Virus record (IMG/VR): IMGVR_UViG_3300029970_000012
Span: 1 to 37,594 of that record
Origin: a virus
Reading direction: 5' to 3' (one strand)
Length of the DNA stretch: 37,594 nucleotides
The notes beneath the pieces were generated by a model. That model made no database searches, was not told where the DNA came from, and saw only the letters and a list, made by a program, of their open reading frames with translations. Each line of letters begins with the position of its first letter. The stretch's first letter is position 1. Below are positions 30,617-37,279 of this stretch, one piece after another. A program made the translations under genes and the position numbers.

Positions 30617-33600
30617 ATGGCATTATTTAAATTAAGTGAAGTATCCGAAGAAGAAAGAAAAAAATATTTACAAAGTATAGGAATAGATGCAGATAAATTC
30701 CAAAAGGCACAAGAATCAAAAATTACGAGTAATCAAAAATCAGAGAACATATTACCTATAGAAAAAAGTAGTAACACGGCTAAATTACCAATAGAAAAAA
30801 AGAATAATACAGACCTACTTCCAATAAAACAAAAGTCTGAAAATAATACTGTAATTAACAAGAAACTTAGTGAAATGGTACAAGGCCCAAACAAAGAAAT
30901 TAATAATTCTCAAAACAGATTTAATTTTAGACAAGCAAATCAAACAGCAAATAAAAATGAAAATAAACAGTTAAATGCTAAAGTAACAACAGAGAAAGAA
31001 AAAGAACAAATAAAAGAATCTGGTGGACTTGAGTATGATACAAATGCAATTAAAGAGGCTATGGAAATAAATAAGGATAATTCAAAAGGAAATCTTAATT
31101 CTTCAATATCACATGTATTAAGTGGCGTTTTAGAAGGTGCAAAAAGTAATTTTGCAGGTGTAGGACAGTCTGCATTATTTCCTATTGCAAATGCATTAAG
31201 AATGGCAGAAGAAGTTACAGGAAAGAAACAGCAAGCACAAGAAAAAGATAATGAAGAAGATTTATGGTCAAACAAAGTATTAGATATGGCTGATTATTTA
31301 AAAGAAGAAAGCCAACACCATTCTAAAGTAGGTTCAATGTTAGAAAATAATATAACAAGAGATTTAGGAAACGTATCAAATACAATAGGAAATATGGCAA
31401 TGTCTGCAATATCAAATATTGCAATACCTAGTTCTGGAATATTGGAAACAGGAATAAGTGCAGGAGGAAATTCAGCAGGAGAAACTTTAAATGAAGACCG
31501 TAGCAATCTGATACAAGCTATAGCAACTGGCACTGCAAAAGGCGCTGTTGAAGGTTTTACAGAAAAAATAACAGGTGGAAATATACTAGGTAAAGGAAGC
31601 CTAGATGATTTAGCAGAAAATATAATTGGAAATAAGATAAAAAGTAAAGCAGGTAAAAAGCTAGCTTCTAAAATGTATGAATTTGGCGGAGAAATATTAG
31701 AAGAACAAATTTCAAATAATGCAGGATATATAATTGATAAAATAATAAATAATAAAGATTTGCCAGATTTTCAACAATGGTTAAATGAATCTAATGAAAC
31801 AACTAAAAGTACATTCTTAACCACACTCGCATTAAACATGTTAGGAATGGGTGGTTCTACATACAATGACAGTCAAAGTAAATCAAAAGATACGCAAGCT
31901 CAAAAATATTTAAATGAAGCCCAGAAAATAATCGACAATGAAAATATAGCGGAAAATATAAAAAATAATGTAACTAATCAATACAATTATAAAAATACAA
32001 TATTAAACAATCTAAACACCTCAAATTTATCAGATAAAACCAAGACTGAATTGCAACAATATTTAAAAGAAAACCAAATAACAGAAGAACAATATAATCA
32101 AATTAATGAAACGTTGCAACAAGAGAAAATGTCCAAAGAGGAACAAAGTAGTGTAAGTGACAACGAAATGAAATATCAATACATAAAAAGTGATAATGCA
32201 AAAGTTAACCAATTAAGACAAGACGTTGTAAACAATAATTGGGACAACAGTAAAGAAACTAATAACTTTGTAAATTTTTTAGAAAAAATTGTTACTGATA
32301 AAGATGTAGAAATAAGACTTGATACTAATTTAAAAGATAACGAAGGAAATGTAGTAAATGGTTCATATAAAGATGGAGTGATTACTATAAATCCTAATTC
32401 AGATAGGTCAGGTGAATTTTTAGCAGTACATGAGTTAACACATGCTATTGGAACAGATGAAATGCGAAATATGGTTCAAAAATATAGAGAAAGTAATTCA
32501 GAATTTAATAATGCAGTAGAAAAGTTGCTAGGAACATACAAAGTATCAGAACTAAACGATGAAGCACTAGCGGATATTTCAGGACAACTATTTAGCAGTC
32601 AAGAGTTTATAAGCAATGTGTCAAATACTAATCCATCATTCTTTAGAAAAATTTACAATGAAATTAAATATTTGTGGCATCAGTTTAGAGGATATAAAAA
32701 TCAAAACCAATTCGTGGACGATTTATATTACAAATGGACCGAGGCTTACAATAGTAATAATAAATTAAATGATACAACTAATTATCATATTAGTGAAAAT
32801 TTTTCAAATGAAATAGATAAAGCATTAAAAAATGAATTACCATCAAATACGCAAGTTAAAGCAAGAGATTTTACACCTAAAATATTGGTTGATAGTGGGG
32901 TTCAAGATTTACCAATGTTGATCACACAAAAGCACATAAAAAGCACGATATATACACAACAAGAAGCACAGGCGCTAGGACTTCAAACTAAGAATGTGAA
33001 TTATCATGGATTAGGAAAAGAATTGTTAATTAAAGCAATTGATAATCTAGATAGTCCACAAGCTATATACAAAACAAGTGAAAATAATTATTTAGTAGTT
33101 ACAGAATTTAAAGATAATAATGGAAAAGAGATAATAGTTCCAATACAAATAAATGGCAATGGAAGATATAATGATGTATTTATAGACGAGAACCAAATAA
33201 AAAGTGTATATGGAAGAAACAATCTTGATAATTATATAAACAAAAACAATTTTGAACAAATATACAAAAAAAACAAAGAGTTAGATTTCAATGAAGGAAT
33301 ACAATATTCCAACGTTGCTAACTCTTCTATTGAGAATAGTATAGCATCTCAAGATGAAGATGTCAATACTACTACTAAATATTCTAAACAAGAATCTGAG
33401 AATAATTCAGATTCTTTTAATTTACTTAAAAATGAAAAAATAACAAAAACCATAAATGAATTAGAAAATGAATTAAGCAAAACGGAATCATTCTTACAAA
33501 GAGGAAAAATAAAAGAACAAATACGTGCATTAAAAGATGGATTCGACAATGTGCAAGATTATCGAGAAGCAGAAAGCTCAAGGAAAGAACAAGCAATAGA

Positions 33601-36600: not shown

Positions 36601-37279
36601 ATCATATGCGATAGTAAGCGGATTAACAAGTTCAAAAGCTTTTAATAAAATGTCACAAGAGCAACAAGTTAAAGCAATTTCAGAAGCATATAAATACTCA
36701 AAAGCAAAGATAAAGTCTACTTATGCAAATTGGAATGACATAGATAATGAAGATAGTTCTGTATATAAGAAAGTACAAGATGTTATTAAAAATGGTGGAG
36801 ACGCTAAAGACTATTTCTTATATATTGGAGCAACAGCTGATGTAAAAAAAGATAAACAAAGAATACAGATACTAAAAAATTCAAACATAGGTTCTAAGAA
36901 GGCAATCTATGCAAGTACAATTGGTAGTGATGATAAGACATATTCAATATTAAACAATACGGACAATTTTAATATTAATAATTATCTAGATTACAAGTTA
37001 CAAGACTTTAGCAGTGATAAAAAAGATGATGGAACAGTAAAAGGAAAAACAATATCAGGAAGTGGAAAAACTAAGTTTTACAATTATATGGATGATAGTA
37101 ATTTTACATATGAACAAAAACTACTTCTTACTGGTATGAAATACAAAACAACAAATGCAGAAAGAGAAAATATATTTAATATAATAAATAATTTTGAATT
37201 ATCAAGCAAAGAAAAACTAAAAATCATGTCTAAAATGCAAGGTTTTAAAGTCTATAATAATGGACAAGTAAGTTTTTAA
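30617..37279 (+). CDS. Giant (2220 aa) multidomain virion protein with an HExxH metallopeptidase-like module and C-terminal hydrophobic segments (polyvalent / ejection-protein candidate)
   Basis: Single uninterrupted ORF with an RBS. AVHELTHAIG at nt 32429-32443. Hydrophobic GLTGTGIALVGFALTEAGIL followed by GGDDDD (about 35764-35850). Internal repeats. Confidence 0.8.
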   Translation: MALFKLSEVSEEERKKYLQSIGIDADKFQKAQESKITSNQKSENILPIEKSSNTAKLPIEKKNNTDLLPIKQKSENNTVINKKLSEMVQGPNKEINNSQNRFNFRQANQTANKNENKQLNAKVTTEKEKEQIKESGGLEYDTNAIKEAMEINKDNSKGNLNSSISHVLSGVLEGAKSNFAGVGQSALFPIANALRMAEEVTGKKQQAQEKDNEEDLWSNKVLDMADYLKEESQHHSKVGSMLENNITRDLGNVSNTIGNMAMSAISNIAIPSSGILETGISAGGNSAGETLNEDRSNLIQAIATGTAKGAVEGFTEKITGGNILGKGSLDDLAENIIGNKIKSKAGKKLASKMYEFGGEILEEQISNNAGYIIDKIINNKDLPDFQQWLNESNETTKSTFLTTLALNMLGMGGSTYNDSQSKSKDTQAQKYLNEAQKIIDNENIAENIKNNVTNQYNYKNTILNNLNTSNLSDKTKTELQQYLKENQITEEQYNQINETLQQEKMSKEEQSSVSDNEMKYQYIKSDNAKVNQLRQDVVNNNWDNSKETNNFVNFLEKIVTDKDVEIRLDTNLKDNEGNVVNGSYKDGVITINPNSDRSGEFLAVHELTHAIGTDEMRNMVQKYRESNSEFNNAVEKLLGTYKVSELNDEALADISGQLFSSQEFISNVSNTNPSFFRKIYNEIKYLWHQFRGYKNQNQFVDDLYYKWTEAYNSNNKLNDTTNYHISENFSNEIDKALKNELPSNTQVKARDFTPKILVDSGVQDLPMLITQKHIKSTIYTQQEAQALGLQTKNVNYHGLGKELLIKAIDNLDSPQAIYKTSENNYLVVTEFKDNNGKEIIVPIQINGNGRYNDVFIDENQIKSVYGRNNLDNYINKNNFEQIYKKNKELDFNEGIQYSNVANSSIENSIASQDEDVNTTTKYSKQESENNSDSFNLLKNEKITKTINELENELSKTESFLQRGKIKEQIRALKDGFDNVQDYREAESSRKEQAIEEYHREQEAKKKEVEEKSKVQKELLKKEIEEAPESKRKQYEIIQSTNPMEDDYHVGIRSPKDIKTFAEVINDDINDDINDDESFAWGDFSKKDAERALKKGSITVYSSKPIENGNFVSTSKIQATEYAGGEKIYTKEVPIEDVAWINGDEGQYAKISTKYSKENSTWREYLESHFQSTGTRTDMSKLPIDNKIIENRKQQIINKAQQIEKTNPDFQGLTDEIKNSYLGEDFDYNTYKQMNNYLDTLQPVKKENNQVVQILPTNKVERIYENTPGEEVNYTEMERPNGKIRKHYRSIIESSNTTAEAKKIAKELMGVDTYVKTSNKYNTEIADRNIETNGPEKALTSLTTNVNDNKKITAVDIATGERLIEYFSKIGDKDRLQEAIQTTAMAGTEAGQAVQAMSLLNHQTPQGQVVWIQRSIDKVNKDLARRNKNGAQFDFTPEMQQKILNSTKENLQDNINQVYEELGKQVPKSHIEQLNEWRYFCMLANPKTHIRNIVGNLVMGKVQDTKNKIAGGLESVFLRNSDERNHTIKRASKEVRQFAKNDIKNVESELGLNDNKYNPKSRLQNAQRTFKSNILENTLGKAFDFNSKLLEAEDGIGLKSAYPKALAEYITANKLDIKNISDKDLQKARNYAIRQAQEATFHQECQIASMINTIENKNNATRVIFGGLFPFKKTPINVAITGYQYSPVGLGFEIVRSGVALRQGKITANQYIDNISKGLTGTGIALVGFALTEAGILKASGGDDDDKEAYEEQQGKQSYSIQIGDNTYSLDWLAPAGIPLFIGSEFSQLLKAGRESGEVKNQNQFISSLENVANAGLTAMNPMSEMSMVSGLVSTLKSYSQDPMQGLSNTLVNMGKSYVNQMFPTALGQVSKTLDDKERSTTSTESGILSKAVDSTKNQIISKIPGLRQMLPVATDVWGNEKEQKGNYIDNAILPWTKKEITTNSTDKALTELYDKTGESSVLPDSYINKTLTYDKQKYRLTDQEYAELKKEYGKTSYAIVSGLTSSKAFNKMSQEQQVKAISEAYKYSKAKIKSTYANWNDIDNEDSSVYKKVQDVIKNGGDAKDYFLYIGATADVKKDKQRIQILKNSNIGSKKAIYASTIGSDDKTYSILNNTDNFNINNYLDYKLQDFSSDKKDDGTVKGKTISGSGKTKFYNYMDDSNFTYEQKLLLTGMKYKTTNAERENIFNIINNFELSSKEKLKIMSKMQGFKVYNNGQVSF

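Follow-up and report, generated by a model that had tools for sequence, protein, structure and literature searches.

What kind of protein takes up nearly a fifth of a phage genome, and at what stage of infection might it act? This question is raised by the IMG/VR virus record IMGVR_UViG_3300029970_000012, analysed here over its whole length of 37,594 nt (hereafter, the window). The first 127 nt of the window (1-127) are identical to its last 127 nt (37468-37594), and the record therefore represents a circular genome of 37,467 bp. A first-pass annotation, made from the sequence alone, had singled out an open reading frame (ORF) amounting to about 18% of this genome and had proposed that it encodes a giant virion protein, possibly ejected with the DNA, carrying an HExxH peptidase-like module, a small nuclease-like module and membrane-like C-terminal segments. 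The ORF is indeed a single 2220-aa frame accounting for 17.8% of the circular genome. The analyses presented here lead us to favor, with a probability of about 0.7, the reading that it encodes a polyvalent, IVP-D (internal virion protein D)-like ejection protein of a temperate podovirus-like prophage residing in a low-G+C, Clostridium-like host.

The giant ORF did not arise by chance, since random codons at the composition of the window would include an estimated ~9% of stops (about 1 in 11), against the 2220 open codons seen here, and the 227 homologues found for its product indicate that it is a real gene. A GGAG ribosome-binding site lies 8 nt upstream of the ATG, and the gene starts 8 nt past the preceding structural gene, with no promoter or terminator between the two. 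The protein can be divided into five parts: an N-terminal region, a zincin-like module, a MuF_C domain, a domain designated here as D3, and a helical C-terminal module (hereafter, C-module) composed of two segments, C1 and C2 (Table 1). Scans of the undivided protein against Pfam and PHROGs returned no matches, an NCBIfam scan of all its segments was likewise blank, and a PDB profile search with the full-length alignment yielded nothing significant. The domains surface only when the protein is scanned segment by segment with Pfam and PHROG models, the domain-wise check that the first-pass annotation had suggested, which brought MuF_C above its cutoff; blank results from whole-protein scans are in this respect an annotation pitfall. 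The peptide motifs quoted in that annotation were all located where it had placed them.

The link to internal virion proteins comes from the C-module. No Pfam or NCBIfam model matches it in segment scans, and it matches phrog_6651, annotated as 'internal virion protein', with an E-value of 2e-6. In profile-profile comparisons with hhalign, the C-module aligned over ~500 columns with the C-terminal half of gp34 from Roseobacter phage CRP-403 (probability 97.3-97.9%, E 2e-11 to 4e-13), a protein that occupies the gp16 slot of an Autographivirus and that itself matches Syn5 gp45, P-SSP7 gp16 and the IVP-D proteins of pelagiphages by tblastn. The core of the module also aligned directly with Syn5 gp45, another annotated 'internal virion protein' (88.6%, E 2.7e-6); comparisons with CRP-403 gp33 and Bacillus phage Page gp20 were negative. 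These profile alignments show, at the level of sequence, that the C-module is homologous to the gp16-slot (IVP-D) proteins of marine T7-like phages. Searched with a profile of aa 1250-2220, a set of 1.84 billion representatives gave at least 15,755 clusters at E<=1e-3, 6002 of them at E<=1e-30. In the best 146 matches the module ends at the protein C-terminus, preceded by an N-terminal extension of ~0-2255 aa (median 992).

Structure prediction extends this picture to viral proteins with polyvalent-type names. An AlphaFold2 (AF2) model of aa 1230-2220 is mostly helical according to DSSP, with confident prediction for about the last 350 residues only. Foldseek searches of BFVD with this model returned 30 matches at E<=1e-3 and down to 3e-33, corresponding to C-terminal pieces of viral proteins named as MuF-C-containing, PolyVal ADP-ribosyltransferase, LPD3, LPD38 or 'Nuclease'; the internal virion protein of S-RIP1 was matched at E 8.6e-6. 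The same model gave nothing significant against PDB, with the T7 gp15-gp16 complex (6yt5) at E 0.39, a blank for which the multi-domain, medium-confidence nature of our models is probably the limiting factor.

Several landmarks are conserved within C1. The segment FPFKKTPINV (from aa 1668, nt 35618), which had been picked out as conserved-looking, contains an invariant P-F-x-K-T-P-x-N (aa 1669-1676, nt 35621-35644), and further downstream lie a helix that is hydrophobic, rich in Gly and conserved (aa 1718-1736, nt 35768-35824; Kyte-Doolittle hydropathy of 1.55 over 19 residues) and an acidic GGDDDD loop (aa 1740-1745, nt 35834-35851). Of the hydrophobic stretches proposed to flank this loop, the one before it holds, but the one after it is weaker, with hydropathy below 1.2. 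The C-module also has a beta-hairpin, and CRP-403 gp34 has aligned equivalents of the C1 landmarks, the hydrophobic helix included. The notion of a membrane-like C-terminal ejection module is backed by homology to internal virion proteins, and the module includes a single hydrophobic helix that is conserved and has an acidic loop after it. C2, predicted with the highest confidence of any part, retains 50-100% identity even where the ~740 residues before it, corresponding to C1, are in relatives a non-homologous module, and it may be a capsid- or portal-docking piece.

The second line of evidence concerns the modules that precede the C-module. The proposed small nuclease-like module proved to be the Pfam domain MuF_C (PF18819), of the PBECR class of predicted RNases, matched at aa 791-879 (model positions 4-84 of 103) with an E-value of 6.7e-14 and 52.3 bits, well clear of the curated cutoff of 27.6. 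The motifs quoted for this module map to aa 771 (QKHIKSTIY, nt 32927), aa 795 (NYHGLG), aa 840 (IVPIQING) and aa 861 (IKSVYGR). All of 14 aligned sequences have H797, P814 and Y865, and the conservation of H773 and S863 reaches 85% or more. The PBECR active site consists of a His at or close to the N-terminal helix, along with a Ser or Thr in the C-terminal strand, and the conservation seen here, read from our own alignment and not in register with the published one, is compatible with an active enzyme. The AF2 model predicts an alpha/beta domain (pLDDT, the per-residue model confidence, of 72-84), for which Foldseek gave a non-significant match to the contact-dependent inhibition (CDI) toxin complex 6cp9 (E 1.7). 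MuF_C has been described both as a PBECR predicted RNase and as a hub domain of polyvalent proteins (Iyer et al., 2017, PMC5512222).

Upstream of MuF_C, the HExxH motif (HELTH, aa 605-609, nt 32429-32443) is preceded by an NPN motif (aa 592-594) and followed, ~40 residues further on, by an E-x-x-x-D motif formed by E649 (nt 32561-32563) and D653 (nt 32573-32575). An HExxH followed about 40 residues later by ExxxD is the signature of gluzincins, which include the thermolysin and neprilysin clans. N592, P593, N594, H605, E606, H609, T613, Y641, E649, D653 and Q662 are invariant across 14 sequences reaching down to 25% identity, and in a set of 35 sequences each of them is conserved to 90% or more. 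An AF2 model of aa 510-1210 (mean pLDDT 66) predicts for aa 528-660 the order helix, three strands, HExxH helix and Glu helix (pLDDT ~65-85), with E649 and D653 on a predicted helix located three helices downstream of the one bearing HExxH. The metallopeptidase (MPTase) domain of polyvalent proteins has been described in the same terms, as an N-terminal helix, a three-stranded sheet, an HExxH helix and a Glu-ligand helix (Iyer et al., PMC5512222).

The best weak matches of the HExxH module are all to zincins, and all of them lie below formal thresholds. Among PDB profiles, the minigluzincin projannalysin ranks first, at a non-significant E of 0.32 and with the HExxH motifs aligned; Peptidase_M78 is matched by 7 of the 14 members (best E 0.029) and DUF6782 by 2 of the 14 (E 0.027), both under cutoff; hhalign aligns HExxH and ExxAD with the MPTase region of the N4 virion RNA polymerase (vRNAP) (E 0.0043, probability 8%), and the Pfam-recognised SprT-like/DUF6782 modules of relatives over 36 columns only (E 5e-5). 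A Foldseek search of PDB with the multi-domain AF2 model found no significant zincin. Gluzincins such as projannalysin (PDB 4jix) share with this module the HExxH, the ExxxD on a predicted helix and the predicted three-stranded sheet and helix before HExxH, but the profile match is not significant, Foldseek gave no zincin, and peptidase activity is here a prediction. The motif and the predicted topology support a zincin-like module, short of membership in a curated family, and the original proposal of a peptidase-like module is upheld on these grounds, without a significant database match.

A peptidase-like module also invites the explanation that the protein is a virion component whose main role is to breach a thick Gram-positive wall, with HExxH acting as a peptidoglycan endopeptidase outside the membrane and the other domains being structural. 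Among the tail genes, none was recognised that would encode another virion-associated lysin, T7 gp16 and its relatives contain muralytic domains, and a wall-degrading role has been proposed for the metallopeptidase of the giant protein of Stx phage phi24B (preprint 10.64898/2026.04.10.717836). The weak matches obtained here, however, are to M78/ImmA-IrrE, SprT-like, DUF6782 and minigluzincin proteins, and MuF_C/PBECR, like the ART-PolyVal and ParB domains that replace it in relatives, has intracellular substrates. The HExxH...ExxxD gluzincin signature is, moreover, unlike that of the usual wall peptidases, M23 and M15. We therefore regard a protein devoted to wall breaching as unlikely.

To delimit the modules, BLAST matches of 120 homologues were mapped onto the giant protein and sharpened with a windowed-identity map. 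Two conserved zones emerge, an N-block (aa ~140-730) and a C-block (aa ~1250-2220), and between them lies a variable middle (aa ~730-1250) common to only about a third of the homologues. When proteins with 85-100% identity in their common blocks are compared, four blocks are each independently replaced by unrelated sequence, namely A (aa 1-~480), MuF_C (720-920), D3 (920-1150) and C1 (1250-~1990); the zincin block (aa 480-720) and C2 (the last ~230 residues) are nearly universal among relatives. The HExxH module is hence part of the conserved backbone of the family and not a swappable effector cassette. In the middle slot, relatives carry ART-PolyVal, LPD3, LPD23, LPD38, SprT-like and ParB domains, the Pfam families PF18760, PF18798, PF18838 and PF18857 being among them. 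The giant protein displays several of the attributes by which polyvalent proteins are recognised, with disparate domain types, the hub domain MuF_C and a location among late/virion genes, and the polyvalent label initially suggested for it is sustained by this hub domain and by the domains found in the same slot of its relatives.

Some relatives that share the N-block and C2 with the giant protein, such as P0113, have an LPD38-type module in place of C1. That module matches the C-terminal region of the giant protein of phi24B (BLASTP E 6e-9; hhalign 93%, E 3.5e-7), a 2807-aa protein that carries MuF_C, LPD1, LPD5 and LPD38. Homology between the LPD38-type module and the C1 described here is not claimed (hhalign E 0.04, probability 1.3%).

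A MuF_C domain and swappable C-proximal modules in a temperate Firmicute phage would also suit a prophage-borne polymorphic toxin of the MuF-toxin kind, serving the lysogen in competition with neighbouring bacteria, and MuF-fused toxins have been discussed in this context (PMC5512222). Pfam scans, however, found no N-terminal MuF (Phage_Mu_F) domain, the gene downstream encodes a 460-aa tail-fibre-like protein instead of a small immunity-like one, and the variable modules are internal, the C-terminus being the most conserved part of the protein. The toxin explanation retains very little probability on this evidence.

The cassette region contains a second compact domain, D3, with ~28 invariant residues (NPMxDDxHxGIR ... 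YSS ... VAWI..xGQYA) and pLDDT values of 80-90. D3 matches part of phrog_13543 (E 9e-21) and has no relative among PDB profiles or Pfam; the possibility that it is a divergent ART-PolyVal was rejected on a negative direct hhalign comparison. Copies of D3 were found in a human faecal phage contig (50% identical) and in a Porphyromonadaceae genome (33% identical). In the latter (L003 10001-10741), D3 is preceded by a segment (..EIADEVIATYSG..) resembling an MPTase at its Glu-helix end, and the pairing of zincin and D3 thus crosses phyla, given that this genome belongs to the Bacteroidales. A variable loop of D3 is encoded by a perfect 12-nt tandem repeat (33805-33841, 3.1 copies) that specifies INDD three times; replication slippage is suggested by the fact that close relatives hold two copies (P0001) or one (P0005).

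A short linker with the consensus TT[KN]Y[SH]x[QSK]E[NS] is present at all three boundaries between modules. In its strict form, T[KNR]Y[SH].[QSKE]E[SN], it was counted 113 times across the 120 homologues, against 0 in shuffled copies. The linkers could be protease cleavage sites, recombination joints or both. Linkers 2 and 3 also form a weak DNA repeat, and an inverted repeat at 33390-33416 (11-bp stem, 5-nt loop) overlaps the 3' end of linker 2 (QESENNSDSF), where it may either follow from the peptide encoded or act as a hotspot for recombination.

At the other end of the protein, the low-complexity N-terminus and the LPIEK motif that had been reported there are both present, but the repeats amount to just three imperfect 11-aa copies (LPIEK at aa 46 and 57, LPIKQ at aa 68) that Tandem Repeats Finder did not detect at the DNA level, and their reading as a meaningful array was rejected. 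Block A, which follows, has a different allele in some otherwise near-identical relatives. It matched nothing in Pfam, PHROGs, NCBIfam or PDB, and hhalign comparisons with T7 gp14, gp15 and gp16, CRP-403 gp31-34, phi24B and Page gp20 were negative.

Table 1. Features of the giant gene and its product; nucleotide positions refer to the window.
Feature	Residues (aa)	Position (nt)	Strand	Basis or remarks
Whole giant gene	2220 in total	30617..37279	+	ATG start, TAA stop
N-terminal low-complexity region, K/N/E/S-rich	1-140	30617..31036	+	Variable among relatives
Block A, Gly-rich amphipathic segments, conserved	~141-520	31037..32176	+	Homologue alignments, mosaic map
Zincin-like (gluzincin-type) module	~528-730	32198..32806	+	Motif and AF2 topology
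Linker motif 1, DTTNYHISEN, zincin/cassette boundary	720-727	32774..32797	+	BLAST breakpoints at aa ~730
MuF_C/PBECR domain, predicted BECR-fold RNase	~746-884	32852..33268	+	Pfam PF18819
Linker motif 2, TTTKYSKQESENNS	919-930	33371..33406	+	BLAST breakpoints at aa ~916-939
Long charged E/K-rich single-helix spacer	~959-1025	33491..33691	+	AF2 helix
Domain D3, compact alpha/beta	1030-1150	33704..34066	+	phrog_13543, conservation, AF2
Linker motif 3, STKYSKEN, cassette/C-module boundary	1151-1158	34067..34090	+	BLAST breakpoints at aa 1135-1152
C1, IVP-D-like helical module	~1250-1990	34364..36586	+	phrog_6651, hhalign, Foldseek
C2, C-terminal tail domain	~1990-2220	36587..37276	+	hmmsearch, mosaic map, pLDDT 85-92

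The window is a complete circular temperate phage genome. Its G+C content is ~29%, with A exceeding T on the + strand, and PHROG and Pfam scans of the other ORFs identified an integrase, a CI/LexA-like repressor, RecT and a replication initiator, along with late genes for TerL, portal, major head protein, tail fibre, holin and endolysin. A copy of the giant protein with 99% identity lies within a 227-kb bacterial contig, where it has the same neighbours and is followed by an Amidase_3 endolysin and then by host genes, and relatives with 52% identity are found in metagenome-assembled genomes labelled as uncultured Clostridium sp. Gene content, the bacterial contig and the Clostridium genomes therefore point to a temperate prophage of a low-G+C Firmicute.

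The giant gene lies at the end of the head-tail block, between the tail genes and the fibre/lysis genes. The order portal, scaffold, major capsid protein, p115, p215, p565, p369 and giant protein is kept in a relative phage whose proteins are 28-43% identical. The gene that follows, encoding the 460-aa tail-fibre-like protein, starts at 37290 and continues at 128..1205; it was missed by the ORF list because the ends of the window split it. None of the ORFs immediately upstream (115, 215, 565 and 369 aa) matched tail tube, sheath or tape-measure chaperone families. p565 (27791-29488) has a homologue, 29% identical (E ~1e-37), in Page, Pony, Pookie and other Pagevirus phages of Bacillus megaterium; it is a virion structural protein there, and the portal of these phages is annotated as 'podovirus-type'. 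A weak match to the SU10 adaptor was obtained with p215. On the absence of tail tube, sheath and chaperone genes, together with the p565 homology and the weak p215 match, we infer a podovirus-like morphology. The late region had no megablast match among 50,697 phage records, and PDB phmmer searches with the portal, p215 and p565 and an NCBIfam scan of p369 were blank as well; the similarity of p565 to Pagevirus is the only tie of the tail of this phage to isolated phages.

Two further features of the late region were observed. A strong intrinsic-terminator-like hairpin (AGGGGGG-AAA-CCCCCTT, then a T run; 26829-26845) lies directly after the major head protein gene, a placement typical of differential expression inside late operons. 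The ORFs at 26909-27256 and 27151-27798 overlap by ~100 nt, and the second is called as a 180-aa product in the near-identical contig L004, so that its 215-aa, GTG-start version is probably too long.

Size, a mostly helical composition, hydrophobic Gly-rich segments and a gene position between head/neck and fibre genes are all features of a tape measure, and the giant protein could accordingly be that of a long-tailed siphovirus-like phage, with the helical C-module setting tail length and the remaining domains being enzymatic add-ons of the sort that tape measures sometimes carry. Two very weak BFVD matches, to a 'Minor tail protein' (E 0.14) and a 'Tape measure protein' (E 0.33), go in this direction, and the major head protein is similar to that of certain Clostridium perfringens phages with vB_CpeS names, a name that we take to mark them as long-tailed. 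Against this stand the lack of tail tube, sheath and chaperone pair upstream, where a Pagevirus-like 565-aa protein is found instead, and the significant matches, which are to podovirus internal virion proteins and polyvalent proteins and not to tape measures. At the usual ~0.15 nm per residue, moreover, 2220 aa would imply a tail of an estimated ~300 nm, and swapping of modules makes the proteins of near-identical phages differ in length by hundreds of residues, which one would not expect of a ruler. A tape measure function is thus quite unlikely.

Since all evidence for the localisation of the giant protein is indirect, it might also be a late non-structural protein that is never packaged, for instance a factor that counters defences or takes over the host from within the cell and is produced only at a late stage. 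Its conserved position inside the structural operon and its homology to internal virion proteins argue otherwise, and its phi24B analogue is packaged: a preprint reports that proteomics finds that protein to be abundant in virions and that the cryo-EM map does not show it, and proposes it as an ejection protein (10.64898/2026.04.10.717836). Anti-defence effectors are, in addition, most useful if delivered with the DNA (PMC5512222). An unpackaged protein seems to us hardly probable. Taken jointly, the tape measure, wall lysin, polymorphic toxin and unpackaged protein hold a clear minority of the probability, as a group unlikely but far from negligible.

Several points weigh against reading the giant protein as a polyvalent ejection protein. 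PDB profile searches and Foldseek against PDB yielded nothing significant for any part of it, and the two AF2 models are of middling quality, with mean pLDDT values of 63 and 66 and the greater part of C1 under 70. No match of the zincin-like module rises above a curated threshold, and the hydrophobic helix of C1, at 1.55 and including a Glu, is borderline as a transmembrane segment. T7 gp14, gp15 and gp16 show no detectable match (hhalign E 0.41-0.45 for gp16), for which reason we do not file the giant protein in the strict T7 gp16 family, and the phi24B giant protein has no direct match to this C1 by hhalign. Podovirus-like morphology is read from gene content only, and the virion location from gene position, homology and the phi24B analogue. 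Finally, ejection proteins have not been found in phi29-like podoviruses of Gram-positive hosts according to a review (PMC8954989), so that the mechanism outlined below is extrapolated from diderm hosts.

If the giant protein is indeed a polyvalent IVP-D-like ejection protein, it would be made late and packed inside the capsid via its C-terminal part, with C2 as a lineage-specific docking piece. At infection it would be ejected through the tail, ahead of or together with the DNA; C1, with its hydrophobic helix, acidic loop and beta-hairpin, would enter the cytoplasmic membrane and help build a DNA conduit, and the N-terminal ~1250 residues would reach the cytoplasm. There, the zincin-like peptidase might cut the polyprotein, possibly and speculatively at the TT[KN]Y[SH] linkers, autoprocessing by MPTases having been proposed for polyvalent proteins (PMC5512222). 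The freed RNase-like MuF_C and D3 might then target RNAs and proteins of the host or of its defences during the opening minutes of infection, and module swapping would reflect an arms race with host defences. A stronger version of this scheme, in which the protein is a self-processing injected polyprotein of a podovirus with a single-membrane host, the linkers are at once zincin cleavage sites and cassette-exchange joints, and C1/C2 is a general ejection and membrane-channel scaffold in many gut phages, is in our view doubtful.

The giant protein can be compared with several known systems. Like the polyvalent proteins of Iyer et al., such as jhp1044 of an H. pylori prophage and the 933W/phi24B giant (vb_24B_48), it is a very large single late-gene polypeptide that combines a zincin-like MPTase, MuF-C/PBECR and uncharacterised domains and has mosaic orthologues. 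It differs from them in that block A, D3, C1 and C2 lie outside every Pfam LPD model, in that its host is a Clostridium-like Firmicute and not a proteobacterium and, with respect to phi24B, in that its C1 is not LPD38. Like IVP-D as broadened by Hardies et al. (2016, PMC4819975), it is large and helical, its gene sits at the end of the tail/internal-protein block, and it joins a C-terminal module, with profile homology to CRP-403 gp34 and Syn5 gp45, to N-terminal cargo; homologues of IVP-D host domains destined for the cytoplasm in N4 gp50 (vRNAP), H66 gp60 and orf71 of a Sakai prophage (PMC4819975).

In contrast to T7 gp16, the giant protein lacks a detectable lytic transglycosylase domain, and separate partners resembling gp14 or gp15 were not recognised, in a phage whose host probably has a single membrane. 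The Dar system of P1 (DarB, DdrB) and the N4 vRNAP follow the same logic, that of a head-packed protein delivered with the DNA before phage expression, and they have an MPTase domain within the same polypeptide (PMC5512222), but the giant protein has no methylase, helicase or RNA polymerase, and its similarity to N4 is marginal.

The giant protein is a good fresh example of an already known kind of protein. Mildly new are the size and unannotated state of the C1/C2 family, its presence in the prophage of a probably single-membrane host, and the linker motif recurring at module joints. Polyvalent proteins (Iyer et al., 2017) and cargo-carrying internal virion proteins (Hardies et al., 2016) have been described separately, few of them with experimental data, and the two literatures describe two halves of such proteins, in that Hardies et al. 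cover IVP-D cargo and Iyer et al. (PMC5512222) never mention internal virion proteins. The locus analysed here unites both in one clean case, with a C-terminal ejection-type scaffold that is very common in metagenomes, a fixed peptidase-like module and swapping cassettes. It provides a defined system for the packing, ejection and processing of phage proteins of more than 2000 residues, for the roles of MuF_C and D3, and for ejection machines in phages of Gram-positive-type hosts.

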